Shown in pieces: positions 17,912 through 55,712 of a DNA stretch of 64,000 nucleotides. Every line of letters starts with the position of its first letter. Position 1 is the first letter of the stretch. Both the position numbers and the translations under genes were made by a program. Below the pieces are notes generated by a model. That model ran no database searches and had not been told where the DNA came from. It saw only the letters and a program-made list of their open reading frames with translations. Source of the stretch: a virus; IMG/VR virus record IMGVR_UViG_3300015371_000004, positions 1-64,000 of that record. The stretch is one strand, 5' to 3'.

Positions 17912-18317
17912 GCAGATCGTCCAAGGCGCCGGTCTTCGCGTACGCGGGTGTCGGTGTGGGCGCCGGGTCTTCGTTGCCCTCGTCTGGAGGCACGGGCGCC
18001 GGAGAGGGTTCGAGATAGACAACCTGACCATCATGGACAACCACAGGGGCCCGGGCCTTGCCCAAGAGCCCGCCGTACGTCACGAGAACCGGCGGGCCTT
18101 CTGCCTCCATGGTGAGACCCTGCCCAGACGGAAAGTAGAGGGACGGCCGAGCTTCGTACCGAAGAAAGACCCCCGGCCCAAGAGGGAACACCATCAATGG
18201 CCCGAGGTGCGCGTGCGGCTCCGTGCGCGTGAAGGACACCCGCGAGGGCTCCAGAGACGTCGACCGCAGCTCGATCCATTGCAGCTGGAAGGGCTCGTGG
18301 AACCGGAGCACTTCCAT
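17901..18317 (-). CDS. Hypothetical protein
   Basis: TGATG-coupled to the upstream peptidase gene. Confidence 0.5.
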   Translation of the reverse strand: MEVLRFHEPFQLQWIELRSTSLEPSRVSFTRTEPHAHLGPLMVFPLGPGVFLRYEARPSLYFPSGQGLTMEAEGPPVLVTYGGLLGKARAPVVVHDGQVVYLEPSPAPVPPDEGNEDPAPTPTPAYAKTGALDDLLSS

Positions 18318-19321
18318 CAGAACCCCAGCCCCGGGCCGCCAGCCGTTGGGTACGGCGGATAGCGCTTGGGTACGCCAAACGGGTCGCGCACCTTCTTGAC
18401 CTTGGCCGTCCCGCGCTTTCTAAGGACGGCCCCGTAGTTTCGAAGTGCTTTCATGGCCCGCGCCGTGAACTTGAGCGCGCGCCGCTTATCGGCGGCAGCG
18501 ATGTGCGGACCGCTCCCTTGTGCCCCCTGAACCCACGGGTGATTACCACGGCGGCTGGTCTCCTGCCTGAGCATGATCTCAGCGCGCTCTTCTTGGTCCC
18601 AAAGCGACCCGGTCTGCAGGAACTCCTTCTTGATGGACTCTCTCCGGAAGGCCGCATAGGCATGACTCAGAAGCCCCTTGCGCATGAACTTCTCTTCGAC
18701 CTGATGGTTCGGGGAGTTCTCGATCGCATGCTGCCATGCGACGATCTCGCTGGCCAGCTCTGAGGGCGTGCTGACGGCGCCGCGGTTGAAGTCCCGGCGC
18801 ATGAGGTGCCCGACCTCGTGGCGGAAGACCGCCTGCACGTCGCCCGCGCTCGCCGGGTCCTTGAGGTCTTCCGGGGTCATCTCCTTGCGCACCTGCTTGG
18901 TGTTCCAGAAGCCGCTGGTCTTCTCGTAGGAGGTCCGCATGGGATCGTACTCGCCGCCGCGTGTCGAGATGTAGACACGGCCCTTTCCCGTGTATGAGAG
19001 GCCCGTCTTGGCGTCCCAGTACTGCTTCTCGCCGTGCTCCGCATGGCTGAGCGCGAGCGGGTCCTGCCGGTAGCCCAACGTGTCGACGACCGGTTCGGGC
19101 TGCTGGCTGTGGAAGACCTCGATCCCCTGCTGGCGGGCCTTGAGGACGTCGGCCTTCAGGTACTCTGGGATCCGGGCGCTGCCCTGCGAGCGTGGGTAGT
19201 GCCGGAGCGAGGGCGCGTCCTGCGAGCAGAACTGGCCGCCATCAGGAGACCCGGCCGGAGCGTGGCAGGGGTTGAACTCCCGGAAGTACGAATCGTTGTT
19301 GCTGGCGGGGATCAGCCGCAC
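18317..19321 (-). CDS. NxCH...GGQFC-tagged protein with HExxH metallopeptidase-like domain
   Basis: YFRE-FNPCHAPAGSPDGGQFC; FRHEVGH...SEIVAW. Confidence 0.7.
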   Translation of the reverse strand: MRLIPASNNDSYFREFNPCHAPAGSPDGGQFCSQDAPSLRHYPRSQGSARIPEYLKADVLKARQQGIEVFHSQQPEPVVDTLGYRQDPLALSHAEHGEKQYWDAKTGLSYTGKGRVYISTRGGEYDPMRTSYEKTSGFWNTKQVRKEMTPEDLKDPASAGDVQAVFRHEVGHLMRRDFNRGAVSTPSELASEIVAWQHAIENSPNHQVEEKFMRKGLLSHAYAAFRRESIKKEFLQTGSLWDQEERAEIMLRQETSRRGNHPWVQGAQGSGPHIAAADKRRALKFTARAMKALRNYGAVLRKRGTAKVKKVRDPFGVPKRYPPYPTAGGPGLGF

Positions 19322-19327
19322 GGGCTT

Positions 19328-20074
19328 CTACGGGAACGAGGTCGAGACCGATCGAACGACCCGGCCGGATGGATAGCTGCGCGGTTCCCCACGATACCAC
19401 GCCGTTACCGTTTTCCCCTTCAGCCGTCGGTTCAGCTCGGACTTCACGCCTTTGGCCACCGGGCCGCGCCATGAATGGGCGTTGCCAAGAAAGTACGCGA
19501 CGATCGACTCGCCGCTGTCGGCCCCGTAGTTGTCGCTGATCTTGTCCAGCGACCCCAGCGCGTCAAGATACGGCTTGGCCGCGAAGTTCACTTTCTTCCA
19601 GTCCCGGCGAACAATGGACGCGATCGACGAGAGGCTCTTGTCTTGGATCCCCTGAAGGGCGGCCGGAGCGGCCTTGTCTGCTGCCAAATCGCGGGCCGCC
19701 TTGCGCTGCTGCCGGGCACGATTGATCAGCCCCTGTGCCTCCGCACGATGAGCGGCCGTTGACTGAGTGGGCCCGCTACTTCCGGTCGGCGCTTTCGGAA
19801 TGGCTGAGTAGCCCGGCGGCGCGTTGACTGGAGTAGACGGTCCGCTGCTCCCGGTCGCGGGGCTGCCCCGGCCGAAGTCGACGATGGACTCCGACCCACG
19901 CGGGCCGACCCCCGTGGTGCCCGATCCCCGGGGCCCGCCTTCCTTGCCACAAAACTGCCCACCCTCCGGGGACCCACCCGGCTTGTGGCAGTCGTTCATC
20001 TCCTGAAAGTAGTTCAGGAGCCGCGCGCGGTTGCGCGTATCGTCGCTGTTACTCCGCGGGACGAGCGTGGTCAT
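19328..20074 (-). CDS. NxCH...GGQFC-tagged protein with conserved C-terminal phage domain
   Basis: YFQE-MNDCHKPGGSPEGGQFC, Gly/Ser/Pro linker, then RRDWKKVNFAAKPYLDAL...FLGNAHSWRG. Confidence 0.7.
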   Translation of the reverse strand: MTTLVPRSNSDDTRNRARLLNYFQEMNDCHKPGGSPEGGQFCGKEGGPRGSGTTGVGPRGSESIVDFGRGSPATGSSGPSTPVNAPPGYSAIPKAPTGSSGPTQSTAAHRAEAQGLINRARQQRKAARDLAADKAAPAALQGIQDKSLSSIASIVRRDWKKVNFAAKPYLDALGSLDKISDNYGADSGESIVAYFLGNAHSWRGPVAKGVKSELNRRLKGKTVTAWYRGEPRSYPSGRVVRSVSTSFP

Positions 20075-20077
20075 GGC

Positions 20078-20828: not shown

Positions 20829-20838
20829 GGGCACCCTC

Positions 20839-28400: not shown

Positions 28401-28659
28401 CAGTCTTGATAGGGACGTTGCCGATGTCGCCGAGGCCCGTCTCGTACGGCTCCACGATCAGGCCCCCGAAGATCCGGACGCCGTTCTCGGTTGCGATCAC
28501 TTCAGCGTCAGCCGGAGGGCGGTACGTCCCATCCTCCGACCGGATGGTCCCGGTCAGCTTCGCTGTGCCATTCAGCGATTCGACAATGCTGAAGCTGCCC
28601 TCGTCGAAGTAGACCGGGACCCCAGAGACCGCCGCGGTGTAGACCGGGCGGCTAGGCAT
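25474..28659 (-). CDS. Tail tip/hub and fibre protein
   Basis: About 1060 aa downstream of the tape measure; hub-like N-terminus (RIFGGLI, WEIDYNKVL, NRVVLVAG). Confidence 0.75.
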   Translation of the reverse strand: MPSRPVYTAAVSGVPVYFDEGSFSIVESLNGTAKLTGTIRSEDGTYRPPADAEVIATENGVRIFGGLIVEPYETGLGDIGNVPIKTAIDATDFSTYAALANVDATFPEQSLKAMLQQLVPFIGNGVTLDPAQATGPTIKGFIGDNRTALDLLNVLAAEAQWIWEIDYNKVLRMYPPGANPSPFNIAMGDGFVEGDIQVWRPGGAARPNRVVLVAGGTPKLIEHPNQNFIGDGTTNLWTLDFPIAGWLPGSVNGVPTGGAVGYGYVVVGGISESIGAPTAGGVIWHYDDATHTITRTLGPVGSGVLIHVPYQYQVPFTVIAEDAADIAIRGVRAVRITADTTYDLATAQTLANNYLAQYQAATNPKRVRYRTKQLGLRIGMHQTINIPIRGLNGVFTVVNIETTVTADNSQGYDVQRIITLVEGLLFRGSPTTNVGSTPLAAGGASGCPCCPAPPQYSAQYENNGICGGAYHILYGPLFWSEPDAFLGEVKTSGWVFVAGNAGPILHNGLPYTRDSIGPSSFKGLTDPNRLEMGMIGGLDFSFDLFGENITGAIPTDGSRTGITGSLGSILMNAPADIFFTAGTGIGSHSDIPGGLRFTGKGKNGTPGDTGPTPQATWDLNYEPAGITLLPGLVGESFNKISGLTLLDGLVGLYSRVTSLPYTINTTAISNSFEFLTFFVDAGTGTINLPDTAAIAPSNLRVFPLTSRGRLFFIKNVSAGVVTVQPFSGNIDGHANITLNPMASVLLQRFDAVIHGDSWHILSSTGSGSFGGSGTTVVPGGPVKAVQFHNPSGFFDGDSQFTWDTVKGQLELTHIQSYSLLKLVNPFATNYGPIAMDIGGNSNNIYFGGELSGGTYLAGAPSPGYIWHQGGPSPLTGSSFIGMGFEQETDEVPGSAITYAKGVGFDIAVHAPSGWLAGEGGYAEIYSYGYGSSGRGAGLHIYRNTDGPSGAPGYLGLQDRSAVGSGLGVGKFWYLWPDISGNPHWGTEPPQADGTPPDTGGIILGAAGTGGTPPFVGLTADPGAPSEDTWWTVRSGVTPNATISIKYRYNGVTHTLTTFGPV

Positions 28660-29731
28660 AGGCAGGCTCCGCAACGAGTTGATGCAAGGCCTTGACCCAG
28701 ACCTGCCCGTGGGCCGGGCCCCAATGTCGCCAGACGTACGCCTTGGCCGCCGCGCCCATCGCGCGCCGCCGGTGGGCATCGGTCACGAGGGACGTCAGCG
28801 CCGCATACCACTCGGCGCCGGTTCGACAGAGCAGCCCGGTCTCCCCATGCGTGATGACCCGGTAGGGCTCGCACGCCGAAGCAATAGTCGGGACGCCCAG
28901 CGCCGAGTATTCGAGATACTTCAGCGGGCTCTTGCTGCGGTTGAATGCCGTGTTGAGGAGCGGCGCCAGCCCGATGTCGAAGTCGAGATACTTGAGGGTG
29001 CGCGGGTACTGCGCAAACTCGACTCCGGCCATGATCTGAACCCGGGATGGCGACAGGGGCTTGAGCAGCTGCGGGATACACCCAAAAAAGCGCAGCACCA
29101 CCTGCGGCTGCTGCTTCAGCAGCTCAAGGATCGCGGGGACGGCCACACAGAAGTCACTTTCATGCGTCGGCGATCCCTGCCAGCCGATCACCACCTGCCC
29201 GGGCTCGCGCGCGGCCGTGGTCGTGACCGCCCGCTGCACGTCCTCGCCCCACAGCTCGTGACGCAGATGGTTGGGAGCCACGATGACCCGGCCCGGGTCG
29301 ACGGCCGCGTGCTCCACCACGCAGGCCTTCAGGGTCTCGGTCGACACGAGAATCAGGTCGCTCGCTTGGATCAGCCGGGTGGAGCGCCGCTTCGTCTCGG
29401 TCTGCCCCCACACCGAAAACGCCGGATTAGCGTAGGCAATATTGAAGAGGTCGTCGTCCACTTCGTACACGGTCTTGACGCCGTGGTGCCGACAGGCCGC
29501 CATCCAGAGTTCCGCGACTGGCAGCGCTGGGCGCTGAAACACGACCGCCTTGTAGGTTGGCAGCTGGCTCATCAGCTGCCGGTGGGCTTCGGGATGGTCG
29601 ACCACCAACTGCTGGAGCAGGAAGGTCAGGTCATAGCCCGCATTCTTGAGCGCAAACGAGGGCGTGTACATCCGGTAGGCCCCACACCCCGACACATCGG
29701 CCGCAAAGAGAAGCAGACGTCCCCGCGTCAC
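28652..29731 (-). CDS. Glycosyltransferase (GT-B)
   Basis: GCGAYR, YEVDDDL, IGWQGS, DIGLAPL..FNRSKSPLKYLEY. Confidence 0.85.
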   Translation of the reverse strand: MTRGRLLLFAADVSGCGAYRMYTPSFALKNAGYDLTFLLQQLVVDHPEAHRQLMSQLPTYKAVVFQRPALPVAELWMAACRHHGVKTVYEVDDDLFNIAYANPAFSVWGQTETKRRSTRLIQASDLILVSTETLKACVVEHAAVDPGRVIVAPNHLRHELWGEDVQRAVTTTAAREPGQVVIGWQGSPTHESDFCVAVPAILELLKQQPQVVLRFFGCIPQLLKPLSPSRVQIMAGVEFAQYPRTLKYLDFDIGLAPLLNTAFNRSKSPLKYLEYSALGVPTIASACEPYRVITHGETGLLCRTGAEWYAALTSLVTDAHRRRAMGAAAKAYVWRHWGPAHGQVWVKALHQLVAEPAYA

Positions 29732-40223: not shown

Positions 40224-40345
40224 CAGGCGCCTCCCCACGTTGCTGACTTTTTCCGGTTGTCCGTCATCCAGAGCGGCTTCTGGTGTGCCGCGGCTCGGGC
40301 CGGGTTTTTTCGGCGCCACTCCCGCTGGTACTCCGCAGTCGTCAC
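40223..40345 (-). CDS. 40-aa basic peptide (YQREWRRKNP), possible homing-endonuclease remnant
   Basis: GTGA/TGATG coupled on both sides. Confidence 0.35.
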   Translation of the reverse strand: MTTAEYQREWRRKNPARAAAHQKPLWMTDNRKKSATWGGA

Positions 40346-40758
40346 GCTCCACCTAAAGACAGTCGGCCGGAGTATGAGGCATCTTCCAGCGCGCTATCTA
40401 TGCCTTCAGCTAGTTTTTCGTATAAATCTGGAAGGTATTTGTAAAAAGTGCCCCAGAAGTACGGGTACGGGCGGCTTCTGCCGGGCACGCCCTCCTCCAC
40501 TGCCGCGGCGTAGGGCGCCAAGGCGTAGACGTGCAGCTCGATGTGCCCATTGCCCGGGACTTCGATGTGGTAGCCGATGCTCCGCTCCAGCCTCCCCGTC
40601 CGGTTGATGAACGAGTGCTGGGTGATCATCTCCTGCGTGGCCGTCGACCCGAACCATTCGAGGACGGTCGTGATGTTGAGCAGGAACTGCTGCGCCAACC
40701 CACCCACCCGCGTGATGAGGTCGTCGAGCCCTTCCATCCGGAGGCGCGGGACGATCAC
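40342..40758 (-). CDS. Neck protein (HK97 gp10-like)
   Basis: RTGRLERSI...YAAAVEEG...PYPYF. Confidence 0.8.
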   Translation of the reverse strand: MIVPRLRMEGLDDLITRVGGLAQQFLLNITTVLEWFGSTATQEMITQHSFINRTGRLERSIGYHIEVPGNGHIELHVYALAPYAAAVEEGVPGRSRPYPYFWGTFYKYLPDLYEKLAEGIDSALEDASYSGRLSLGGA

Positions 40759-42419: not shown

Positions 42420-43469
42420 TTACGTGAGGACCGTGCCGTCGTTGCCGAGGTACGCGAACCGCGGCTCGACCCAGTCGGCCTCCCACCGTTCGCGCGCGCG
42501 GAAGGCGTAGACCTCCATGATGAAGGAATTGCCGCTGCGCGGATCCTCCTGCACGATCTCCAGATTGTCGCGCCGCTGGAACACGAAGCCGCGCTTGGGG
42601 TCGCCGATGAGCCACGCCTTGGCGGGGATGAACGGCGACACGAACACGGTGTAGCGCCCGTAGAGCGGGTTGATCTGGCCCGAGAACGTGCCGGTCGAGG
42701 TGATCGGCATGATGGTCGAGTTCATGAGCCGGAGCGCGGTGAACTCGTCCTCCGGGCTCACCAAGAGCTGTGTCGGGACGTGCAGGAACTTGCGGCCGGT
42801 CGGGTCGACGATCCGGCGCGCGTTGGTGTGCGCCGATTCGAGGGATGTCGCGCTGAGCACCGAGTAGGCCGCGGGCCGATTGCCGTAGAGCGTGCTGAAC
42901 ACGACGCCCGTGCCCGCGGTGCCCGTGTAGGTGGAGGGGCCGACTTTGACACCTTCCTCCGTTCGGGTCAGGCCAAGCAGGCGGGACAGCACGTAGATTT
43001 CTTGGAAGATCCGGAAGCCTTCGCCGAGGTCCGCCGAGCGGCTGCGAATCTGGCCGGTCTGATCGTCGTCGAACAGCTCGCGCTCGAAGGTGATGAGCTG
43101 GCCGTACTTGTAGTTCAGGATTTCGCGCTCGAAGCCCTTGAACGCGCTGTCCTGAAACTTTTCACCGTTGTCGACCTGCTTGGGCAGCGTCGGCCGGTAC
43201 AGCCCGCCGTAGATTTCGCTCCGGCGACTCGACCGCACCTCGGTGACGAAGTGCGGGAAGATGACCGGCAGGTCCCGGAAGACGACGTTGGCGAACTCCT
43301 GCACGGCCGATCGCAGCAACCATCCGTAGGTCGCTTCGATGTTGGCTTCGTAGAAATTGCCGAGCCGCCCCGCGGCTTCACGCAGCCGGTGGAAGCTGAA
43401 CGAAGGGTCGAGATAGTCGATCCGAGAGGCGACTTCTCGCAATTTGCCGAGCATGCGCTGAGAAAACAT
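42420..43469 (-). CDS. Major capsid protein (HK97 fold, Mu gpT-like)
   Basis: KYGQLITFERELFDDDQTG, PTQLLVSP, VSPFI..AWLI, AFRARERW..EPRF. Confidence 0.85.
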   Translation of the reverse strand: MFSQRMLGKLREVASRIDYLDPSFSFHRLREAAGRLGNFYEANIEATYGWLLRSAVQEFANVVFRDLPVIFPHFVTEVRSSRRSEIYGGLYRPTLPKQVDNGEKFQDSAFKGFEREILNYKYGQLITFERELFDDDQTGQIRSRSADLGEGFRIFQEIYVLSRLLGLTRTEEGVKVGPSTYTGTAGTGVVFSTLYGNRPAAYSVLSATSLESAHTNARRIVDPTGRKFLHVPTQLLVSPEDEFTALRLMNSTIMPITSTGTFSGQINPLYGRYTVFVSPFIPAKAWLIGDPKRGFVFQRRDNLEIVQEDPRSGNSFIMEVYAFRARERWEADWVEPRFAYLGNDGTVLT

Positions 43470-44063: not shown

Positions 44064-45659
44064 CTACTTGGTGGTCTGCGCCTGCTTGATCGGCAGCCCC
44101 AGCTCTTCGAGAAAGTCATCCGGGCCCGCTTCCCCGTTGGCAAACGACTCCCGGAAGCGCGACGGCATCCCGTCGACTTCGCCGTCCGAGTCCTCATCGA
44201 ACTCCTCGTCGCGCGACCGCGCGCTCTCGACGAGCGAGCTGTAGAAGCTGGCCGCCTCTTCCATCTCGGCCTTGGTCCGGCACTCGCGCACGAGCTTGGC
44301 GGCGAGCTTGTCCTGCGTGTCCTTGTCGAGCCCCTTGACCTTCTTGACCACGCGGGCCGCGGCGGCCTCACGCGCCTGCTGGTTCATCTTGGCCTTGAGC
44401 TGACGGTTCTCTTCCGTGATGGCTTCGAGGGCTTCCTTCAGCCGTTCGGTCTCGGTCGGCTCGGCCGCGCCCTCGGTCTCGGCGTAGCGCCGGGCCTTCT
44501 GGGTCGTCTGGGTCGACTTCTTCGTCATCGACCCGGCCCCCGCCTTGGCGCCGCCCTTGGCCGCCATGTTTTTCTTGGCCCCTGTGGTGTAGATCGCGTT
44601 CTCACGCGTCTTGTCGGCTTTCTCCTCACCCGGGCGAATCACCTTGGTGCCGCGGTTGAACCGGTCCCGGAGCGACGACACGGCCTCCCGAGTCTCCTCG
44701 GGGTCTTCGGCCTCCTCGTCGTCTTCCTCGTCGGCCTCATCCTCTTCCTCGGCGTCGGCCTCTTCCAGTTCGTCCTCGGCGTCGGCGTCCTCGGCGTCGT
44801 CTTCCTCGGGCTCCGCCGCTTCGCGGGTCTCTTCAGCCTCGTCGTCGGCCGCGGCTTTCTTGGTCGGCTTCTTGGCTTCCTTGACCTTGTCCTTCTTGGT
44901 GGCCTTGGCGTCGGCCTCCTCGCTCATGCACTCTCGGAGCTGCTCGGTAAGCGTCTCGACCTTGGCCGCATCACCGCGCTTGGCGGCCTCCGCGATCTTG
45001 GTCAACAGCTTCTCTTTCTTCCCCATGATGGTCTGCTCCTGTCGAGCTGCTCGGGCCGATTCGAGGAGGTGTTGAAACCCCCCACCTGCGCCAGCCTCGG
45101 TCACGATGTCGGCCGAGGCAATCTTTCGAAAGTTCTGAACCTCGTTGACCTTGCCGCCCGCTTCCGCGATGTCGGCCTCTTGGGTGTCGCCGTGGCCATT
45201 GATCGAGATACCGATCCGGTCCGCCGCGCCCCACTCCTTGAGGTCTTCGATGTTCTGGGCCAGCCACCGCTGCGACCTGAAGACATTCAGGTCGCCGACG
45301 ACTGCGCCCCCTCGCTCTCCCTCACGCACAAACCGAACGTTGGTGTACAGCCCAACCTGATCCCGGATGGTGCGCTCGGGCTGGACGGTCTCATCGATGC
45401 GGGAGGGATGGTCAGCGTACGCCCGGAGCTTCTCGAACTGCCCTTGGTCGACGGCCTCTTTGAGGACATGCGCCGGGTAGTAGTGCCGGTCGGCGGCGTT
45501 TCCCAGACCAGCCTTGATGATGGTGACACCCCGGAAGACACGGCCCCCATCCGCGAGGGGCAGGCTCCGCGCGCGCTCGCTGAACGTCCGGACGAACGTC
45601 GTCAGGTGCGCTTGCTGGCGCCGGGTAATCGGGTACTTTCGTGCGGCGGCCGTGGCCAC
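44064..45659 (-). CDS. Prohead protease-scaffold fusion
   Basis: IIKAGLGN..RHYYP, YADHP, IGISING (His/Ser); long acidic and coiled-coil C-terminus. Confidence 0.8.
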   Translation of the reverse strand: MATAAARKYPITRRQQAHLTTFVRTFSERARSLPLADGGRVFRGVTIIKAGLGNAADRHYYPAHVLKEAVDQGQFEKLRAYADHPSRIDETVQPERTIRDQVGLYTNVRFVREGERGGAVVGDLNVFRSQRWLAQNIEDLKEWGAADRIGISINGHGDTQEADIAEAGGKVNEVQNFRKIASADIVTEAGAGGGFQHLLESARAARQEQTIMGKKEKLLTKIAEAAKRGDAAKVETLTEQLRECMSEEADAKATKKDKVKEAKKPTKKAAADDEAEETREAAEPEEDDAEDADAEDELEEADAEEEDEADEEDDEEAEDPEETREAVSSLRDRFNRGTKVIRPGEEKADKTRENAIYTTGAKKNMAAKGGAKAGAGSMTKKSTQTTQKARRYAETEGAAEPTETERLKEALEAITEENRQLKAKMNQQAREAAAARVVKKVKGLDKDTQDKLAAKLVRECRTKAEMEEAASFYSSLVESARSRDEEFDEDSDGEVDGMPSRFRESFANGEAGPDDFLEELGLPIKQAQTTK

Positions 45660-45910: not shown

Positions 45911-46198
45911 CTATTTGCCCTTAAAGGATTTATCTCCAAGGCTCGACGTACAGACGGCGTACGCATTCACCCCGCGCCCGCTGGCCTTGACCTTGTCGGT
46001 ACACCGCTTCCATTTGTCCGTGTGGATGTCCTTGTGGCCCGCCTTGGTCATAACCTCGCGCGTGAGAGGCCAGTTCGACGGGGTCGTGGCCACCCGAGCC
46101 TGAATCACGCGCACGGGGATCCCCCGCAGGTGGACCGTCTCGCCCGGGGCAAGGTCACGCTCTTCCAGCGAGTCTGACTGAGGAATCGGCCGAATCAT
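45911..46198 (-). CDS. Small head-operon protein with KWKRC...NAYAVC motif
   Basis: SD aaggag; two-Cys basic C-terminal module after LTRE. Confidence 0.55.
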   Translation of the reverse strand: MIRPIPQSDSLEERDLAPGETVHLRGIPVRVIQARVATTPSNWPLTREVMTKAGHKDIHTDKWKRCTDKVKASGRGVNAYAVCTSSLGDKSFKGK

Positions 46199-47315
46199 GC
46201 GGGGTCTCCTTCCCACAGAGTGCCTTGAACGTCTCCACCCACGCCGGGCCTTTGGCCTCCTCGGAGTAGCTCGCCCACACTTCCCGGTTGGCGGCCTCCC
46301 CCACCCGTCTCCGTAGGTCTATATCCTCAACAAGCGCTGAGAGATGCTCCTCCCACTCGGCCTGCGTCTCGGCCAAAAATCCCGTGCGGCCATGGTCAAT
46401 GCTCTTGGCATACGGATAGACCTTCGAGGCCACACAGGGCACGCGAAGTGACGCGTACTCCAGCCACTTGAGGTTCGATTTCGCCGCGTTAAACTGGCAC
46501 GGCGTGAGCGGGGCGATCCCGATGTCGAAGCTCACGAACTTCAGGGTCGCCGGGTACTTCTCGAACTTCACGCCCTTGACCACCTGTCGGCGGTTGGGCG
46601 GCACCGTCTGGCGCACCAGCTCCGGGAGGATCCCGAAAAACCGCAGCATCACCTGCGGGTAGCGCTTGACGATCTCGGCCAGCGCTCCGGCCGCCGCCGA
46701 GAAGTCCGTCTCATGCGTCGTCGACCCCTGCCAGCCGATGACCGTGTGCGGGTAATTGCTGTACGGCGTCACCGGGCAGAGCGCGGCGTCGCCCCAGTAG
46801 TCGGTCCGTAGGTGGTTGGGGCAGATAGAGATCCGGTCCTGCCAGCGCTTCCAGCCCAGATGCGTAGCCACCGCCTGCGCCAACGGTACCGTGGAGGTGG
46901 TCACCCGATCAGCCAGATCAAGCTGGGCCTCCAAGTCGCGCCGGATGTCCCGCCGCTCCCAGAAGCCCTTGGCCGGGTTGGTCCGCGGAATCGCCCACAG
47001 GTCATCGTCGAGATCCACCGTCGTCGGGATCCCCCGGCGCTGGCACTCCCGCATGACGGCTGGAAACGGCCCGCCAATACTGCGCTGGAAGACCATGAGA
47101 TCGTACTCGTAGCCCTCAGGCGAAAGCCCACCGATTCGGTCGGTCGGGTGCCCCTCTCCGGCCGCCGTCAGCGCGCGCATGTAGTGCGCGACCACCTCGC
47201 GCTGGTTGACCATGTCGATGTCGGCCGCCTTCGACTGCTGCACGTACATCGCCGGGAAGTACGAGCGGTACATCCCGACTCCCATGGTGTCGCTGTAGAA
47301 CCACTGCACTTTCAT
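46155..47315 (-). CDS. Glycosyltransferase (GT-B)
   Basis: GVGMYR, VDLDDDL, IGWQGS, DIGIAPL..FNAAKSNLKWLEY. Confidence 0.85.
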   Translation of the reverse strand: MKVQWFYSDTMGVGMYRSYFPAMYVQQSKAADIDMVNQREVVAHYMRALTAAGEGHPTDRIGGLSPEGYEYDLMVFQRSIGGPFPAVMRECQRRGIPTTVDLDDDLWAIPRTNPAKGFWERRDIRRDLEAQLDLADRVTTSTVPLAQAVATHLGWKRWQDRISICPNHLRTDYWGDAALCPVTPYSNYPHTVIGWQGSTTHETDFSAAAGALAEIVKRYPQVMLRFFGILPELVRQTVPPNRRQVVKGVKFEKYPATLKFVSFDIGIAPLTPCQFNAAKSNLKWLEYASLRVPCVASKVYPYAKSIDHGRTGFLAETQAEWEEHLSALVEDIDLRRRVGEAANREVWASYSEEAKGPAWVETFKALCGKETPHDSADSSVRLAGRA

Positions 47316-48187
47316 CCGGTACGCCTCGCCTGAAAGACCGAATACGGCACGTACGTGCGCGCCCGCCCCTGCACCATCGACTGCGGAAGTTTCTCACACC
47401 GGCAGTTCGGATGACTATCGCGAATCGGCTGGTCCGTGGTGACGGTCAGGTGTTTCGGCCAGCAGATCGGGCAGACCTTCTCGTCATCCATGGTCACCCA
47501 GACCTCAGCCTCGTCGAACCGGTTGTAGGCCGCCGCCGCGCCGAGCGCGAGCGCCCAGAACAGCTCATTCGAGCCCAGCCCCGCAAGGCCTGCCTTGACC
47601 GTTGCCGCGATCCCGCCCAGCCGTGACAGCGTCTCTGGAAAAGGCTGCTCGGTGGCCACCGCGTAGCGGAGCGCCCCATTGACCTTCTGCGTGGCCACCC
47701 CGGCCCATGCCCCCACCCGATCCCGATAGTCGAGCCCGTTGATCTGAGCGGCCAAGAGGGCTTCCAGCGCGTCTTCCTCGTCGATCGGCTCCTCATCGAG
47801 GGCCCCATCCACGCCCCCGAGGAAGAGCGCCCACAGCCCCTGCTCGTAGCCTGCCGCATAGGCTCCCGCTAATGTGTCGTCGAACTCCTCCAGCGCGTCA
47901 TCGGCGGCATCCATGATCTCGTCTTGGAACTGCTGGGTGAGCGCGTCCACCGTGCCAAGGCTGGCGGCCTGCACGGTGTTCCATGCCGGGGTCTCTTCGG
48001 GCGACAAGTCCGGGAAAGGCAGGATGAAAAACTGGGCGAAGTAGCGGTCCAGTTCCTTCTGGAACATCTCGAAGGGCCGCTCGAACTCGTCGTCGAGCTT
48101 CGCCTTGAAACTGAACTCGCGCGCCTGAAATTCCCGGCGGCGCTGGAGCAGGATCGTCCGCGCGCTACTCGGTAGGTCTTGGGCCAC
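47312..48187 (-). CDS. MuF/gp7-like minor head protein (short form)
   Basis: WVTMDDEKVCPIC...HPNCRC after portal. Confidence 0.8.
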   Translation of the reverse strand: MAQDLPSSARTILLQRRREFQAREFSFKAKLDDEFERPFEMFQKELDRYFAQFFILPFPDLSPEETPAWNTVQAASLGTVDALTQQFQDEIMDAADDALEEFDDTLAGAYAAGYEQGLWALFLGGVDGALDEEPIDEEDALEALLAAQINGLDYRDRVGAWAGVATQKVNGALRYAVATEQPFPETLSRLGGIAATVKAGLAGLGSNELFWALALGAAAAYNRFDEAEVWVTMDDEKVCPICWPKHLTVTTDQPIRDSHPNCRCEKLPQSMVQGRARTYVPYSVFQARRTG

Positions 48188-50231
48188 TGGATTCGAGAAG
48201 GGCCTGCACGCGCGCGATCTCCACGCCCAGCCGTGTGATGTCGCGACCATCGGCGGTCTGGGCCTGCTCGGTCATGAGGCGCGCCAGCTTCTTCCGGCGC
48301 CGTGTTTCGAGCGACCGCGCCCGTGCTTCGACACCCCAGACGGCTGCCGACGCCTTGAGCGGCGCCCCCGCCGACTTCTGGCCCGTGATGCTCGCGCGCT
48401 CGCCCCCACGGGTGAAGCCCCCACGGTTCAGGGTGGCGCGCGTGTTGGCCAGCCCGCGCCCGCTCACCGCCTTGGCGCTGTAGCCCATCTCGGCGCTCGT
48501 CTTGGTGACCTTCCGGGCATCGCTGTTCGTCGCGCCGCCGGGGCCCGCGATGGGCTCGGGCGCCTCCTTCGGCACCGACTGGAAGCCCTGCATCACGAGC
48601 GGATCCTTCCCGCGCTCCTGACGGATCGCCTCCTGCTCCTGCCCGTAGTCATACCCCGTGATCCCGACCTCACGTGAGGCCATGGTGGCCGACCGTTCCT
48701 TGGTGATCCAGTCCTGCGCCTCCATCATCGCCAGATCCTTGAGCTTGGCCGTCCGATCCTCGGCCGCCAGCCCCGGGAAGCTCACTTCGAAGATCGCCTT
48801 GGTCACCGGCAGCTTCTCAGTGTCCACCAGCCGCCGGTAGGTCTTGTGGAGCATCATCTCGATGACCTGCTGGTAGGTCTCGAAGTTCTTGACGTCCGGC
48901 TCGGTCTGGAGCAACGCGCTGGCGCGCGTCGAGGCCGAACTCACCCCCAAAAACTGCTCGGAAATTCCTGCGCCGATCGCGATGACCTTCAGGAGCATAT
49001 CGGCGTCGGTCTTGGCGTCCGACGCATCAGTCGACGCGTTCTTGTACTCGATCGCGATGGCGTCATTGTGGACGGCCACGGCCCCCGGACCCGGCGGCGT
49101 TGCAAACTGCTCGTTGGCCCGATCGACCTCGGACTTGCCCCCTTTGACCGAGACGTCGAGCGCGAACATCGACCGCATCTTGTTCTGCATGATGCGGTCG
49201 TCCATGAACTCCCGGAAGCGCAAGAGCCACCCGAGAATCGCGTACAGCTCCGACCGGCCGCGCTTCTCGCTCGACGACTTGTTCAGGGTGAAGTGGTCGA
49301 CCTCCTCGGCCGGGATATGGCGGATGACCAGAATCGAAGCGGGCACCTGCTCGCCGGGCACGATGATGGGCGACGACGCGACGTACTGCTGGTAGTAATA
49401 CTTCACGTCCTCCAAGTCTTCGAGGTTCGTGACGACGTCCCAGATGGTGCACGGGTCAATCTGCCGCTGGGTCAGCTTCCCCTTCACCACAAAATGCCGG
49501 TTGAACTGCTCTCCGTAGGTCATCAGCTCGCGAAGCCACGTCTTGATCCGGAGCGTCATGTCGTGGCGCAGCCAGAACTCGTCCCATGCCTTCTGATGAG
49601 CCGGGTCCGGCACGTCACAGGTCAGCCCCCGCGAGAGCACGAACTGCGGAACGATGTTGACGATCCGCTTGCCGAGCGGGTTGCGCGTCGCCGCGTCCCA
49701 GCATTTGACGTGCGCCGTCAGGTAATCGTGCAGCGTCTGCTGCTTGGCGTAGGGGCTGTTGAGCGCAGGCAGGACCGAGTCATGGATCGGGAACACCGAC
49801 CGCCGGTTGCCTGCGGCCTCATCCGGGTACAGCCCCGTGTAGAAGTCGTCCGAGGCGCCCGACTCCTTGAGCCGCGGATCGGTCTTGGCTTCCTCCCGCA
49901 GGCTCGCGTTCAGGTCCCGGAGCTTCTGCATCGAGTAGTGCTTGAGGATCCGGTCGCGCACCGGCTTACTCCGCGCGAACTCCCGGAAATTCTTGTAATG
50001 CACCAGCCGCCGGTTTTTGCCCGTGCCTTCGAGGACCTTGGCATTGATCCCCACGACCTTCGTCTGGACGTTCTGCAGCAGCCCTTCCATGACGGCATCA
50101 AAGGCCGGGAGGGCCGAGAGCCGGTTGACCCGGAGCTGCGGATCGGTCTTCTTGGGCTTGGCGTCGTCGTCGACCTCGCGCACGATGCCGAGGGCCGAGG
50201 CGTTCGGGTTCCGAATGGATGATTCAGGCAC
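48165..50231 (-). CDS. Portal protein
   Basis: NPLGKRIV..FVL, ELMTYGE, EKRGRSEL, GISEQFLG; after the terminase; SD aggag before GTG 50231. Confidence 0.85.
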   Translation of the reverse strand: MPESSIRNPNASALGIVREVDDDAKPKKTDPQLRVNRLSALPAFDAVMEGLLQNVQTKVVGINAKVLEGTGKNRRLVHYKNFREFARSKPVRDRILKHYSMQKLRDLNASLREEAKTDPRLKESGASDDFYTGLYPDEAAGNRRSVFPIHDSVLPALNSPYAKQQTLHDYLTAHVKCWDAATRNPLGKRIVNIVPQFVLSRGLTCDVPDPAHQKAWDEFWLRHDMTLRIKTWLRELMTYGEQFNRHFVVKGKLTQRQIDPCTIWDVVTNLEDLEDVKYYYQQYVASSPIIVPGEQVPASILVIRHIPAEEVDHFTLNKSSSEKRGRSELYAILGWLLRFREFMDDRIMQNKMRSMFALDVSVKGGKSEVDRANEQFATPPGPGAVAVHNDAIAIEYKNASTDASDAKTDADMLLKVIAIGAGISEQFLGVSSASTRASALLQTEPDVKNFETYQQVIEMMLHKTYRRLVDTEKLPVTKAIFEVSFPGLAAEDRTAKLKDLAMMEAQDWITKERSATMASREVGITGYDYGQEQEAIRQERGKDPLVMQGFQSVPKEAPEPIAGPGGATNSDARKVTKTSAEMGYSAKAVSGRGLANTRATLNRGGFTRGGERASITGQKSAGAPLKASAAVWGVEARARSLETRRRKKLARLMTEQAQTADGRDITRLGVEIARVQALLESSGPRPTE

Positions 50232-50238
50232 AGGTCTC

Positions 50239-51117
50239 CTAGCGCAGACGCCGCTCGCCGTACGGGTCCTTGCGCATGAACGCGGGATTGGCGTGCACGT
50301 AGAGCATGCCCAGCTCTTCAGGGTTGTCGCGCTCCCACAGGAGGCCATTGGCCAGCGAGCCCGCCACCGCGTCGGCCACGTCCTTCCGGCCGGGCTGGCC
50401 ATTTCGGAAGCGCTTCGGATGGTCGTACTTGAGGCCCCGGACCACCTCCAGCTCGCGCATCTGCTCGAAGAAGGGCTCGAACTCGTAGTAGTCGAGCTTC
50501 TCCTCGTTCAGGAGTCCGATGAGGGTGTCGTAGGGCAGGCGGTTCCGGTCGACCGAGATCAGCTCGACCTCATAGCCGTCCTTCTCCAGCTGCTGGCGCG
50601 CTTCTTCGGACTGCCAACCGTCGTAGCTCACGCGGACGATGTTGAAGTCGCGAACCTTATGGAGGTTGTAGACGAAGCGCTGGCGGAGCCCCGCGTAATC
50701 GATCTGCTTGCCGGGCGCGGGCGTGATCTCGACCATGAAATCGACGACCCAGCGGGTGGTCCCGGGCTCCCGGTGAGTCATGGCCACCCCGGTCCGGTCG
50801 TTGTTTTTCGACTGGTCCACGTGGACGAAGTAGCGGCGGCCGGGCACGCCCCGGAAGATCGGGGTGAAGGTTTCCTCGTAGGGGTCCCACGGGCTCTGCC
50901 GGGCCTTGTTGGCGAACCGTTCGAGGATGCCCGGGTCGCGCAGCGCCTTCATGGCGCCCTGCGTCTTGAGCAGGACCGACCCATAGTTCTGCCACGCCAA
51001 GACCTCGTTCTGGCGGAACTGCTCCGCTAGACTCTCGAAGGTGACCTTGGGGTTCAGCTCCCAGCTGGCGGCGATGACCGCGATCCGAGTGCCGTCATGG
51101 GTTCGGTAGACTTCCAA
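50239..51117 (-). CDS. Terminase large subunit, nuclease half
   Basis: SWELNP, FVHVDQSKNNDRTG, SYDGWQS, DHP..GRKDVADAVAG. Confidence 0.85.
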   Translation of the reverse strand: MEVYRTHDGTRIAVIAASWELNPKVTFESLAEQFRQNEVLAWQNYGSVLLKTQGAMKALRDPGILERFANKARQSPWDPYEETFTPIFRGVPGRRYFVHVDQSKNNDRTGVAMTHREPGTTRWVVDFMVEITPAPGKQIDYAGLRQRFVYNLHKVRDFNIVRVSYDGWQSEEARQQLEKDGYEVELISVDRNRLPYDTLIGLLNEEKLDYYEFEPFFEQMRELEVVRGLKYDHPKRFRNGQPGRKDVADAVAGSLANGLLWERDNPEELGMLYVHANPAFMRKDPYGERRLR

Positions 51118-51856: not shown

Positions 51857-51885
51857 TTAGACGTGTAATAGGGCTAAAAGGTTCC
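51857..51885 (-). promoter_or_regulatory. ECF-sigma-type promoter (GGAACC-N17-GTCTAA)
   Basis: ggaaccttttagccctattacacgtctaa. Confidence 0.7.
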
Positions 51886-51890
51886 ACTGA

Positions 51891-51904
51891 TTACAAAAGT
51901 GTAA
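51891..51904. promoter_or_regulatory. TTACA-N4-TGTAA operator-like palindrome
   Basis: ttacaaaagtgtaa between divergent promoters. Confidence 0.65.
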
Positions 51905-51905
51905 G

Positions 51906-51933
51906 GGAACCTTTTGGCGTAGAATACGTCTAA
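51906..51933 (+). promoter_or_regulatory. ECF-sigma-type promoter (GGAACC-N16-GTCTAA)
   Basis: ggaaccttttggcgtagaatacgtctaa. Confidence 0.7.
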
Positions 51934-52088
51934 ATAAGTGGAAGGGAGGTGAGACGATGAGTTGAGGTTCGGTAAGGCCCGGGGGTCGCCTGCGGGGGCT
52001 CCCGGTGGACTCTCCCCCTGAATCCCCGCCAACTGGCCTTCCTTGAGACAGGCCGCCGAGAACGCCCGGCGGCCCCTGCCGTATCTAG

Positions 52089-52117
52089 GGAACCTTTTTG
52101 CCGTATAATACGTCTAA
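52089..52117 (+). promoter_or_regulatory. ECF-sigma-type promoter (GGAACC-N17-GTCTAA)
   Basis: ggaacctttttgccgtataatacgtctaa. Confidence 0.7.
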
Positions 52118-52135
52118 ATAGGTGGAGGGTTCCTG

Positions 52136-52832: not shown

Positions 52833-52996
52833 TTGTCGGGCGGGAAGTCCGGCGAGACCTTGACCCAGCCCTGCTGACCCAGCTTCTGATCGCGCCACTC
52901 GCGCAGCGTCACCGTCTTGGTCTCACCCGTCTCCGGGTTCTGGGCTTCGTACGACTGTTCTTTCTCGTCGGTCGGTTCCTTCGCAGGATCGGGCAT
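52829..52996 (-). CDS. 55-aa protein coupled to the zeta-toxin gene
   Basis: MPDPAKEPTDEKEQSYEAQNPETGETKTVTLREW; TGATG coupling. Confidence 0.5.
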   Translation of the reverse strand: MPDPAKEPTDEKEQSYEAQNPETGETKTVTLREWRDQKLGQQGWVKVSPDFPPDN

Positions 52997-54111
52997 CAGA
53001 TTCCTCCGCTGGAGAGCATACTGCCCCGGCGCTGAAAACGCCGCTGGAAATTTTCGGCGTAGCGCTGGGCCGCCACGACTTCTCGATACGACCCGGGCTC
53101 GTCCGCCCGCCAGTACACCTCGTCGAGCGCCGTGAACCCCCAGACGTGCGGCGGCGCGACCTCGGTCAGCTTCCCGTGCCGGTTGAGCACGGTCGCCTTG
53201 GCGCCGCGGTTGTCGACGACGACGTACGCGTCGAACAGGTGCTTGACCTTCTCGAACGTCCGCCGCGGGCGCGTCCCGTACTGCTTGTCGTAGTTGGATT
53301 TGATGTAGCCGATCGGCACGTACCGGCCCTTGCCGGTCTCGGCCCGCTGCTTCATGTAGCGCTGGAGCGACCGGGAGACGGACGTGTTGATGTCGACGTC
53401 GGTGAAGCGCGCCTCCACCCGGTAGCCTGCCTGCTTGAGCGACTTGATCCGGCCCATGGCGCCGCCGCCGTAGCGCGCGGTCTCATAGTCGACGCCGCCC
53501 AGATCCTTCATGGTCGAATCGAGCACCATGTTGTACTTGTTCGCCCGGCCGATCTCGATCAGCCGATCGACGATGTCGTTCGACTCGTCGTGGAGGACGC
53601 TGGCGTTGCTGCCCGTCCACTCGGGGAAAAGCGTCTTGATGTCGTCGGAATTGATGGCCAGCTTGTTCGAGTAGTCGAGGCCCGCCGCGGCCGTCGTCTT
53701 CCCCGAGGCCGTCATCCCGGACATCATCACGGCCACCGGATGCTGCTGGGGTTCGAGGGGGTTGGTGCGCGGCTTCCAGCCTGCCTTGGTGACCTCGTGG
53801 GTCAGCACCTTCTGAATGATCTCGTCGTGGAGCTTCTGGCGCTCGGTCGTGTACTCACCGGTCTTCTCGTCGAAGTACTTCGACTTGGTCCCGCGAGGGC
53901 CCCACTCGGCGAGCATCTTCCGGTTGGCCAGCTCGGCCTGCGCGATCTCCTTGGCGTACTTGGTCTCTTCCGGCGTGTCGGCGCTCTTGCGGACCTGCGC
54001 TTCGAGGTCGGTCGCGTGGCCCGGCTCGCAGTCGCCGACGCCTTTGTCGGCAAACTTCCCATCACGTGGATCGTGACAGGGGTTGAATTCGCTGAGGGGA
54101 ACGAGGTGCAT
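52996..54111 (-). CDS. Tagged zeta-toxin-family P-loop kinase
   Basis: LSE-FNPCHDPRDGKF leader; SGMTASGKTT, INSDDIK, VLDST, GYRV, GRYVP. Confidence 0.8.
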   Translation of the reverse strand: MHLVPLSEFNPCHDPRDGKFADKGVGDCEPGHATDLEAQVRKSADTPEETKYAKEIAQAELANRKMLAEWGPRGTKSKYFDEKTGEYTTERQKLHDEIIQKVLTHEVTKAGWKPRTNPLEPQQHPVAVMMSGMTASGKTTAAAGLDYSNKLAINSDDIKTLFPEWTGSNASVLHDESNDIVDRLIEIGRANKYNMVLDSTMKDLGGVDYETARYGGGAMGRIKSLKQAGYRVEARFTDVDINTSVSRSLQRYMKQRAETGKGRYVPIGYIKSNYDKQYGTRPRRTFEKVKHLFDAYVVVDNRGAKATVLNRHGKLTEVAPPHVWGFTALDEVYWRADEPGSYREVVAAQRYAENFQRRFQRRGSMLSSGGI

Positions 54112-54115
54112 CTCG

Positions 54116-55180
54116 TCAGGGGTTCCAGCGGAACACGGCCGGATTTTTTCGGAACTCCGCTCGACGGCGCTGCTCTTTCCGCACCTTCGATGGCACCGCA
54201 GCCCACCGCTTGGCCTGCTCAGGCGTATCGAACTTCTTCAGCACACCATCCGCGTCTCTGACCTCCCACGGCCGTCTGGGCACGGGTGCCCACTGCAGCA
54301 TCAGGCCGCCATTGTCTAGGCTGGGCAATCCGTCAAACCGACCAAAGCGCTCACGCGGCAGGTCCGTCCGCTCCGGCTCCTCACGTGGCTGCTTCCGTCG
54401 GCGCCTGAAGTTCTCGCGCGGCAGGTCAGTACGCGCTCCGGGGTCTGGGTTCATCAACGCCCGGGACAAGCGAGCCTTCGGCTGGTCAGGCTTCACGATC
54501 TCCGCCCTCGCATAGTCGCTATCGTTGATCGACGCGAACCTGACGATGAACCCGGGCCGGTCGTACTTGCTGGCCTTCCGAATCGCGACGTCGTGGCCCG
54601 TCTGATTGGCACGTGCACGCGCCGCGGATGCCGCGTCATGGTAGCTGTCGAAATGTTCCCTCCCGGGCTGGTCGCCCCCACCCGTCGAGCAGAACTGCCC
54701 ACCATCCGGCGACCCACCCGGCTTGTGGCAATCGTTGGCCTCGGCTACCTTCGCGGCGCCCGGGGCGACGACGGACATGAACGGATCCTTCTTCACGACG
54801 TCGATCGCCTGCTGCCGGACCTGCGTGAGCGCCGCCAGCCGCACCGACTCCTCGTTCCGGCCATGCATGACCCGGAGCGCCTGCAGCCGGTCCAGCTCCC
54901 GGCGCTGGGTGGCCACGAGGTCGTCCACGTTCATGCGGCCACTCTTGACCAGATCGACGATGTCCCGGACGGCCGAATCAATGGGGCCCGGCTCGCGCCG
55001 TTCGAGGAGGGCCGTCCTCTTCTGGGCCTCCCGGTCCATGGCACAGCGAGCCATCGCCAAGGCGGCCGAGCCCGAGGGCCGCTTCTCCCGGCAGGGGCGG
55101 TCATCGGCCTGCTTCTGCAGCCACGAGTTCGAGGCGGCCGTGTTCGAGCCTTTGAGTGCTGCGACGTGGATGCGGCTCAT
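54116..55180 (-). CDS. Protein with internal NxCH...GGQFC tag
   Basis: KVAE-ANDCHKPGGSPDGGQFC; RTDLPRE repeated twice; start uncertain. Confidence 0.6.
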   Translation of the reverse strand: MSRIHVAALKGSNTAASNSWLQKQADDRPCREKRPSGSAALAMARCAMDREAQKRTALLERREPGPIDSAVRDIVDLVKSGRMNVDDLVATQRRELDRLQALRVMHGRNEESVRLAALTQVRQQAIDVVKKDPFMSVVAPGAAKVAEANDCHKPGGSPDGGQFCSTGGGDQPGREHFDSYHDAASAARARANQTGHDVAIRKASKYDRPGFIVRFASINDSDYARAEIVKPDQPKARLSRALMNPDPGARTDLPRENFRRRRKQPREEPERTDLPRERFGRFDGLPSLDNGGLMLQWAPVPRRPWEVRDADGVLKKFDTPEQAKRWAAVPSKVRKEQRRRAEFRKNPAVFRWNP

Positions 55181-55196
55181 GTTTGGTGTATTACCC

Positions 55197-55712
55197 CTAG
55201 TCCGAGGGCCACGGGGCACGCTCAAGTTCGTATTCTTCCCGGTCTCGCTCCAGACGCGACCGATGGATCCCCCGCCGATAGCTGGCTTTCGTCTTCCCGC
55301 TCCAGCGCCGATTCCGGTGTTCCGCGCGCGCCTGTTGGCGGTACTTGTCGAGCAGGTCCTTGCTCATCGGCTTCTCAGGCGTGCCGCGAGCCATCGCGTC
55401 CAGCGCTTCTGGAGACATCCCTTTGAGGGCCCTAATTCCATGCCGCTGAAGCGCGGCCAGCTGGGCCTTCAGGTCCGCGTAGATTTCCTGCTGATTTTGC
55501 TGCTTGCGCGCGGCCTGCCGCGCCATCTTCTCAGCCCTCCGCTGCTGATGGGCAGCGCCGCGCTGCTGGCGCGCCGCGCGCGCCCGGTCCACCGCGCTCA
55601 TCCCGGTCGACGCGCAGAACTGCCCGCCGCCCGGCCCGGACGGATTATGGCAGGGGTTGGCTTCGCTGAACGGACGTCCCTCGCTGGCGGGCCATAGTTC
55701 CCACATACTCAT
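55197..55712 (-). CDS. Tagged, highly basic (Arg/Gln-rich) protein
   Basis: PFSE-ANPCHNPSGPGGGQFC. Confidence 0.65.
   Translation of the reverse strand: MSMWELWPASEGRPFSEANPCHNPSGPGGGQFCASTGMSAVDRARAARQQRGAAHQQRRAEKMARQAARKQQNQQEIYADLKAQLAALQRHGIRALKGMSPEALDAMARGTPEKPMSKDLLDKYRQQARAEHRNRRWSGKTKASYRRGIHRSRLERDREEYELERAPWPSD

Follow-up and report, generated by a model that had tools for sequence, protein, structure and literature searches.

A repeated prefix tag on unrelated proteins of an IMG/VR phage, one form of a seemingly undescribed junction motif in phage polyvalent proteins

Detailed knowledge of enzyme loading into phage heads is available mainly for T4, P1 and a small number of giant phages. 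In T4, a short N-terminal leader ending in hydrophobic-x-Glu is found on unrelated proteins, suffices for loading and is cut off by the prohead protease; this capsid targeting sequence of the internal proteins was reportedly described by Mullaney and Black in 1996. Encapsulin cargo is addressed to an HK97-fold shell by a C-terminal cargo-loading peptide, and polymorphic toxins are said, in work by Zhang et al. from 2012, to possess pre-toxin boundary motifs, i.e., a short conserved peptide bounding swappable payloads. Polyvalent proteins, which are common, were described by Iyer et al. in 2017 in phages with portal-terminase packaging, and both capsid packaging and processing by peptidases were predicted for them; the text contains neither the term 'linker' nor a junction motif (PMC5512222). 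The DNA analyzed here, termed the window, stems from an uncultured phage of about 130 kb and comprises the first 64 kb (positions 1 to 64,000) of the 115,949-bp IMG/VR virus record IMGVR_UViG_3300015371_000004, which is estimated to be 76% complete and for which no close cultured relative was found. Seven of its genes share a tag, a short Cys-bearing peptide placed before unrelated protein bodies; it varies a junction motif of phage polyvalent proteins that apparently has no published description. On balance, we consider it probable that the tag is the module prefix of such proteins, which would load cargo into the prohead and would then be trimmed by the prohead protease. Within this phage lineage, the polyvalent protein is largely split into separate genes.

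In a six-frame scan of the window, eight tag copies were found, all on the minus strand and spread over seven open reading frames (ORFs). These are the same eight copies that had been reported by the first-pass annotation, which was made from the sequence alone. The tagged genes of the record are:

18317-19321, minus strand: tagged gene 1, 334 aa; tag at 19226-19285; body with a conserved HExxH.
19328-20074, minus strand: tagged gene 2, 248 aa; tag at 19949-20008; Gly/Ser/Pro-rich linker; phrog_13953 domain (4.6e-22).
38100-38621, minus strand: tagged gene 3, 173 aa; tag at 38523-38582; body without a family match.
39054-40223, minus strand: tagged gene 4, 389 aa from the ATG at 40223, with the ORF open to 40352; tags at 40128-40187 and 39651-39710.
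52996-54111, minus strand: tagged gene 5, 371 aa; short variant tag at 54028-54096; zeta-toxin-type kinase.
54116-55180, minus strand: tagged gene 6, 354 aa; 140-aa N-terminal part; internal tag at 54689-54748; basic body without a family match.
55197-55706, minus strand: tagged gene 7, 169 aa; tag at 55614-55670; basic Arg/Gln-rich body with an isoelectric point (pI) of 10.4.
74236-75348 of the record (10236-11348 of L007), outside the window: extra carrier, second zeta kinase; one plain and one Cys tag.

The tag unit consists of four parts, namely a short hydrophobic leader, the sequence hydrophobic-x-Glu-x-Asn, a Cys loop (x-Cys-His-x-Pro-x-Gly-x-Pro-x-Gly-Gly-Gln-Phe-Cys) and a Gly/Ser/Ala-rich stretch before the cargo. 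Seven copies span, from Cys to Cys, 19226-19267, 19949-19990, 38523-38564, 39651-39692, 40128-40169, 54689-54730 and 55614-55652, and the variant copy, in which the second Cys follows eight residues after the Phe, spans 54028-54078 (all minus strand). A degenerate DNA pattern for the Cys-His...Gln-Phe-Cys core gave six matches on the reverse strand of the window, none on its forward strand and none in a reversed-pattern control. N-terminal copies have an extra common leader, M-x(1-5)-L-x-P-x-S; in the window, the leaders end in F-R-E, F-Q-E, F-S-E or L-S-E, and their counterparts in relatives read M-x-I-V-P-N-S-W-G-S or, in compact form, M-P-x-F-L-V-P-L-H-E. The earlier picture of an N-terminal signal held for most copies and failed for two copies of the window, which are internal. 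One of these lies in the ORF 39054-40352, which has two tag copies. The ATG at 40223 is preceded by GGGGAGG, and because the internal ATG at 39749 lacks a ribosome-binding site, 39054-40223 is read as one two-module protein.

In a scan of the whole record, two further copies were found, both on the second zeta-kinase gene. The first has the plain form E-Y-N-H-Y-H-D-R-L-G-R-F, the second reads E-F-N-R-C-H-E-P-A-G-S-G-I-G-G-R-F-A-P-K-G-T-G-I-C. Plain and Cys copies occur together on this gene, which makes the tag of the window one form, Cys-bearing and with an extended loop, of a wider N-x-x-H...G-[QKR]-F motif. The tag itself is matched by no Pfam, PHROG or NCBIfam model, either in the window carriers or in the other carriers scanned.

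The tag is under selection as a peptide and is borne by unrelated bodies, as the first-pass annotation had claimed in both respects. At 40128 and 54689, the same 18 residues are encoded by copies that differ in eight codons, all of them synonymously, and summed over all pairs of the six strict copies compared, 97 differing codons are synonymous and 45 non-synonymous. The 60-nt flanks of the tags are 17-45% identical, i.e., at random level, except for the leader M-S-L-D-W-R-L-Q-P-S-S-G-G-F-R-E, which is common to 38100-38621 and 39054-40223 (upstream identity 0.65). The cargo bodies show no mutual BLASTP similarity apart from the two zeta kinases (30% identity, 2e-11), and among the window carriers only the zeta kinase belongs to a Pfam family. 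These data bear on the idea that the tag is a cassette boundary at the DNA level, i.e., a homology patch for swapping cargo by recombination. Tag and cargo do travel together, as the zeta kinases share a tag subtype with a late second Cys (also present in P0048 and P0055, whose cargo was not recognised), and the array content varies between related phages. The copies are only 67-87% identical as DNA, and the identical peptides differ at 8 of 18 codons. Because identical peptides diverge synonymously, the constraint lies on the peptide and a role in recombination at the DNA level is contradicted, which makes a cassette boundary hardly credible.

A profile built from ten tag copies was searched against 1.84 billion cluster representatives and matched 505 proteins at E ≤ 1e-3, 68 of them at E ≤ 1e-10. 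The tag is, thus, not confined to this phage, and it also separates modules within giant polyvalent proteins; the highest number, 11 tags, was found in a protein of 2,992 residues. Instance statistics were obtained from 172 readable proteins with 308 tag instances, and 160 carriers were scanned for Pfam domains. The Asn of the first tag is located at residue 10-24 in 103 of the 172 proteins, successive tags are spaced by a median of 242 residues, and the last tag is followed by a median of about 210 residues. The tag was never C-terminal in these proteins; it is always the prefix to a module and never a protein end. Short (N-P-Y-H-D-E-L-G-R-F) and long Cys forms alternate inside single proteins. 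In P0041, for instance, tags occur at 828, 1070, 1348, 1697 and 2009, and three of the modules contain one Pfam domain between successive tags (ART-PolyVal at 891-1050, Topoisom_I at 1422-1615 and ADPrib_exo_Tox at 1792-1935).

The first-pass annotation had expected a profile search to find diverse C-terminal domains, and such domains were indeed obtained. Among the 160 carriers, ART-PolyVal was found in 19, ADPrib_exo_Tox in 10, Zeta_toxin in 7 and topoisomerase IB in 5; further cargo comprises GNAT acetyltransferases, NUDIX, Fic, RelA_SpoT, PI3/4-kinase, SAM lyase, LPD1 and ParBc_2, as well as the zincins ATLF, M90 and M64. Head-protein domains were also present, namely Phage_Mu_F (3), Peptidase_S78_2 (2) and portal (2). 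In P0039, the portal domain (104-467) precedes the tag (556), giving the order portal, tag, cargo. When nine proteins with a long N-terminal part were scanned with Pfam, no MuF, protease or portal fusion came up, and the order portal-tag-cargo was seen in P0039 only.

The same effector repertoire (ART-PolyVal, zeta toxin, zincins, LPD1, ParB-like) is known from the polyvalent proteins of Iyer et al. Two further points of likeness are that the carrier genes of the window adjoin terminase and portal genes and that the relatives of the window proteins are true multi-module giants. The difference is that most modules are separate genes here: six of the seven window carriers have a single module and 39054-40223 has two, as against 2-11 tagged modules in profile matches elsewhere. 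Neither the repeated prefix tag nor its Cys clasp and leader seem to have been described before. Literature searches with motif strings returned nothing relevant and no published description of the tag was found. Neither the tag nor P0046, a protein with five copies, gave a match in a tblastn search against 50,697 cultured phages. A scan of genome contigs with the strict Cys pattern returned a single locus, an ABC transporter, which was rejected as a false positive; prophage copies with other spellings are possible.

The two cysteines of the tag behave as a pair. The second Cys is present in 198 of 199 instances with the first Cys and in 1 of 109 instances without it; among the former, it follows the Phe directly in 189 and stands a few residues later in nine. 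These counts are inflated by relatedness, yet both forms are seen inside single proteins. An AlphaFold2 (AF2) model from a 52-row tag alignment had low confidence (predicted local distance difference test, pLDDT, 60) and showed only a His-Phe bridge, which would bring the cysteines together; we regard this as a weak indication. The bodies behind the tag are poor in Cys. Six of this phage's eight carriers have no cysteines besides those of the tag. Over 130 carriers of the Cys form, the sequence outside the tag contains 0.20% Cys and 90 of 130 have no Cys there at all; the other predicted genes of this phage contain 1.24%, about six times the level of the carrier bodies. Such Cys-poor cargo would fit unfolded passage through a narrow channel or work outside the reducing cytoplasm.

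The tag could be a clasped knuckle, held by a disulfide or a metal, which stays on the mature protein and acts after packaging, for instance as a handle for leaving via portal and tail, in refolding or in binding a common partner from host or phage inside the infected cell, rather than in loading. The almost perfect covariation of the Cys pair, the invariant His, Asn, Gly and Phe, and the Cys-depleted cargo bodies all suit this idea, and the tag would remain on the cargo if a cut fell after the Glu. Against it, Cys-free or short forms (N-P-Y-H-D-x-x-G-R-F) replace the Cys form in the same proteins, so that the clasp is dispensable, AF2 predicts no stable fold, and the motif is in no solved structure. 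We consider this explanation quite unlikely. A profile search of the PDB had given chance matches only. Four other readings of the tag residues were set aside: for a haem CXXCH site only C-H is present and a Pfam match to Paired_CXXCH is spurious; a zinc knuckle with four ligands lacks a conserved upstream His in this phage; a Cys-Gln thioester is at odds with the Gln retained in Cys-free forms; and an analogy with eukaryotic 2A peptides (E-x-N-P) was considered and dropped.

The start of the tag, hydrophobic-x-Glu-x-Asn, recurs at residues 39-43 of the major capsid protein. In 34 homologues of the capsid protein, the Glu of this site is invariant, L, M or F stands two residues before it in 34 of 34, and Asn two residues after it in 27 of 34. 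In the related phage G003 (129,940 bp, rated complete; capsid protein 62% identical to that of the window), both the capsid protein and the tags have L-H-E-x-N; in the phage studied here, both have F-x-E-x-N. The protease-scaffold family, in turn, has hydrophobic-x-Glu-Ser 20-35 residues before the C-terminus, F-R-E-S in this case. The match between tag, capsid protein and protease concerns few residues and is no more than suggestive. Since hydrophobic-x-Glu(-x-Asn) is conserved in the capsid N-terminus and in the C-terminal tail of the protease as well, a cut after the conserved Glu, as had been proposed earlier, is plausible, although other lineages carry Lys, Asp or Arg instead.

The parallel to the T4 prohead protease, drawn at the same time, found no support at the level of the enzyme: the prohead protease 44064-45659 gave no relevant Pfam family match and no solved relative (phmmer), and no link to T4 gp21 was found. 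The likeness to the T4 targeting sequence is one of leader pattern. Both leaders have about 10 residues and end in hydrophobic-x-Glu, and those of G003 (M-P-x-F-L-V-P-L-H-E) are equally long. Unlike the T4 sequence, the unit described here has about 30 residues, its Asn/His/Gly/Phe core would remain on the cargo, and it also occurs internally between modules; the protease matches phrog_15531. The encapsulin peptide is C-terminal whereas the tag is an N-terminal prefix and never C-terminal, and pre-toxin motifs differ from it in sequence and secretion context; no homology is implied in either case.

In the giant phage SPN3US, head proteins lose N-terminal propeptides of 20-254 residues to the protease gp245, which also takes off its own C-terminal propeptide; Ser is preferred just after the cut, and one cut is at E-124 (PMC10052503). 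The cuts mapped for SPN3US gp245 substrates and in phiKZ (PMC10052503) parallel the candidate sites in the tags, the capsid protein and the protease tail. Those propeptides are protein-specific and do not form one shared portable motif, and cleavage in the phage studied here is deduced from sequence patterns.

It follows to ask whether the tag is a processing site only, at which the prohead protease or the tagged HExxH zincin separates modules, with the cargo being loaded by other means. The tag stands at every module boundary of the giant proteins, zincin domains (ATLF, M90, M64) and the HExxH protein are among the carriers, hydrophobic-x-E is common to the tag and to the presumed protease substrates, and Iyer et al. 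predicted processing by metallopeptidases (PMC5512222). Free-standing genes, on the other hand, retain the whole 30-residue unit 10-20 residues from their start under strong purifying selection, where a 10-residue leader needs no separation, and the conserved part is far longer than typical protease sites and includes the covarying Cys pair. We consider a pure cleavage site unlikely. A role in loading is favored because purifying selection maintains the tag in standalone genes as well, which would be unnecessary for a site that only separates modules.

The tag might also cleave itself at its invariant Asn, by succinimide formation aided by the nearby His. Such Asn chemistry is known from intein C-termini and from pre-toxin motifs of polymorphic toxins. 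Both Asn and His are invariant in every tag form, tags stand at module boundaries, and Hint or intein-like domains in some carriers indicate that these proteins do make use of self-processing. The neighbours of the Asn are unlike known self-cleaving junctions, and the leader would be left without a role in standalone genes; self-cleavage is, in our view, very unlikely. Hint/PT-HINT and intein-like matches were seen in the metagenomic carriers P0043 (3,105 aa) and P0063 (1,380 aa), so that self-splicing or self-cleaving domains coexist with the tag.

The genes around the tagged arrays are:

55727-56605, minus strand: ATPase-like half of the terminase large subunit (phrog_2), directly upstream of the tagged array.
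50239-51117, minus strand: nuclease-like half of the terminase large subunit (phrog_2699, phrog_9, phrog_17415), just upstream of the portal gene.
48165-50402, minus strand: portal protein (phrog_10963, 4.6e-24), 48-53% identical to those of G003 and G001.
47312-48250, minus strand: MuF-like minor head protein without cargo; weak Pfam match to Phage_Mu_F (E 0.025).
44064-45659, minus strand: prohead protease with an acidic scaffold-like tail (phrog_15531); F-R-E-S at 44145-44156 as candidate self-cleavage site.
42420-43469, minus strand: major capsid protein of the Mu gpT / Phage_capsid_4 type (Pfam); F-Y-E-A-N at 43341-43355 as candidate maturation site.
46155-47315 and 28652-29731, inside the head and tail blocks: glycosyltransferase genes (phrog_7162; 4e-38 and 2.5e-34).

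The head module comprises the terminase ATPase-like gene, three tagged genes (55706-52996), nuclease-like gene, portal, MuF-like gene, glycosyltransferase, protease-scaffold and capsid protein. A second tagged pair (40223-38100) lies between a neck gene and tail genes, a third (20074-18317) beyond the tail genes. In three related phages (G000, the one studied here, G001 and G003), the tagged array has the ATPase half of the terminase on one side and the nuclease half with the portal on the other. Its length is 4.6 kb in the window, about 16 kb in G001 and some 12.5 kb in G003; G001 and G003 have at least 13 tags each. The content of the array differs between related phages, and a second array precedes the tail genes in G000 and G003. 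The link to head genes that had been claimed for the tagged genes is borne out by their position, by synteny in two related phages and by carriers with portal, MuF or protease domains; it does not extend to the carrier at 74236-75348 of the record, which is located among regulatory genes.

MuF polymorphic toxins (Jamet et al. 2017, PMC5576092) resemble this arrangement in that cargo is coupled to a head protein, and three carriers elsewhere have a MuF domain. They differ in that no window carrier matches Phage_Mu_F and that MuF stands apart here as a small gene of its own (the MuF-like 47312-48250); Jamet et al. mention neither a motif nor a linker or cleavage (PMC5576092).

From what was observed directly, i.e., anatomy, peptide-level selection, prefix position, spread and cargo range, Cys pairing, Cys depletion and synteny, we infer packaging, cleavage and injection of the tagged proteins. 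During prohead assembly, the leader-plus-tag unit would dock newly made cargo to an internal head component, possibly the portal, the MuF-like protein or the scaffold/protease core. The prohead protease would then cut after the Glu, as it apparently does in the capsid protein and in its own tail, and the Cys pair would close the tag loop through a disulfide or a shared metal. Finally, the Cys-poor cargo would leave via the tail with the DNA and act at an early stage in the next cell. The closest experimental finding in support is a 2811-aa polyvalent protein (gp47) detected by proteomics in phi24B virions.

Several observations weigh against loading and trimming by the tag. Tag, capsid protein and protease match in three to four residues, with co-variation seen in two phages, and other lineages have Lys (91/308), Asp or Arg for the Glu, so that any cut there would follow a lineage-specific rule. 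The carriers are known from sequence, the docking partners named are candidates only, and AF2 gives the tag alone no confident fold (pLDDT 60). The site 18317-20074 is only loosely near tail genes, and the carrier at 74236-75348 of the record sits among a sigma-factor gene, a gene for a DNA methyltransferase and small genes. Close relatives of the capsid protein (67% identity) have no tags within 10 kb. The zeta kinase search matched haloviruses and the head-morphogenesis protein of cyanophage PSS2, and the motif is not in the polyvalent head protein of PSS2 (gp030). Of the first-pass annotation as a whole, portability, peptide selection, the head-gene link and a plausible Glu cut have stood; the tag proved to be neither phage-specific nor always N-terminal, and one carrier lies away from the head genes.

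A wider claim, which we put forward tentatively and hold to be rather doubtful, is that hundreds of phage lineages use leader plus tag as a general portable signal for loading and processing, read by a conserved internal component of HK97-fold heads. Any protein with the prefix of about 30 residues would then be packed, trimmed after Glu (or Lys elsewhere) and injected, which would amount to a natural programmable cargo system with the Cys pair as a redox or metal clasp. If the prefix alone were sufficient for loading, it would be a ready-made handle for placing chosen proteins in phage particles. A short common prefix with invariant residues makes the loading and processing of polyvalent proteins directly testable by experiment. 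Hundreds of "hypothetical" phage proteins could be annotated as probable injected effectors (ADP-ribosyltransferases, acetyltransferases, zeta kinases, topoisomerases, likely anti-defence enzymes). New here are the co-occurrence of the cysteines, the Cys-poor cargo, the Glu-site match with capsid protein and protease, and the array within a split terminase.

Of the body types proposed by the first-pass annotation, the zeta kinase has a Pfam match, the HExxH motif is invariant in seven orthologues and the basic protein has a pI of 10.4. The seven orthologues of 18317-19321 (40-60% identity) are all tagged at the N-terminus, and H168, E169, H172 and E192 are invariant. From this H-E-x-x-H...E and the placement of helices, the body is probably a zincin peptidase. 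No match to the gene was found in Pfam, PHROG or NCBIfam, the AF2 model of the protein was poor (pLDDT 51), and an atlas search with the HExxH body gave sub-threshold leads only (Tox-MPTase4, M78, LPD23). The kinase 52996-54111 matches Pfam Zeta_toxin (1.2e-21) and phrog_16619 'minor head protein' (1.4e-14); its Zeta_toxin score is 77.6 bits and that of 74236-75348 of the record 75.2 bits, versus a gathering cut-off of 22.3. The zeta kinases 52996-54111 and L007 10236-11291 reach about 21 bits with the NCBIfam XopAJ/AvrRxo1 zeta-toxin subfamily, far below its cut-off of 300.

The starts at 40223, 20074 and 55706 are backed by ribosome-binding sites; that before the ATG of 19328-20074 is GGGAGGG. 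The GC content at third codon positions of 54116-55180 is 0.74-0.96 across the entire ORF, and GGGGTAATAC sits 7 nt before its ATG at 55180. The sequence GGGGTANNAC was found seven times in the window (one copy at 55188-55197) versus 0.73 expected. The copy 7 nt 5' of the ATG at 55180 leaves no room for a ribosome-binding site, which suggests leaderless transcripts.

The terminase large subunit is apparently split into an ATPase-like and a nuclease-like gene, and this split is kept in the three related phages. The gene 55727-56605 is 48% identical to the gene preceding the array in G001, and the genes at the same position in G001 and G003 match phrog_17415 (terminase large subunit). Homologues of 50239-51117 are found directly before the portal gene in G001 and G003. 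In translation, the C-terminus of 47312-48250 reads C-P-I-C...H-P-N-C-R-C, a Cys/His cluster which we take to be typical of MuF proteins. In 44064-45659, an N-terminal protease domain is followed by a middle part that is very acidic and rich in Asp/Glu, and then by a coiled-coil-like tail with L-G-L-P-I-K at its end; the protein is likely a protease-scaffold fusion as in Mu-like phages. The glycosyltransferase genes in the head and tail blocks hint at glycosylated virion proteins. The sequence GAAC-N16/17-CGTCTAA occurs in six copies versus 0.05 expected, in two divergent clusters (14500-15122 and 51857-52117). The copies look like promoters of the extracytoplasmic function (ECF) sigma type, and the one at 51857-51884 (minus strand) points toward the gene that precedes the terminase nuclease half and the portal gene.

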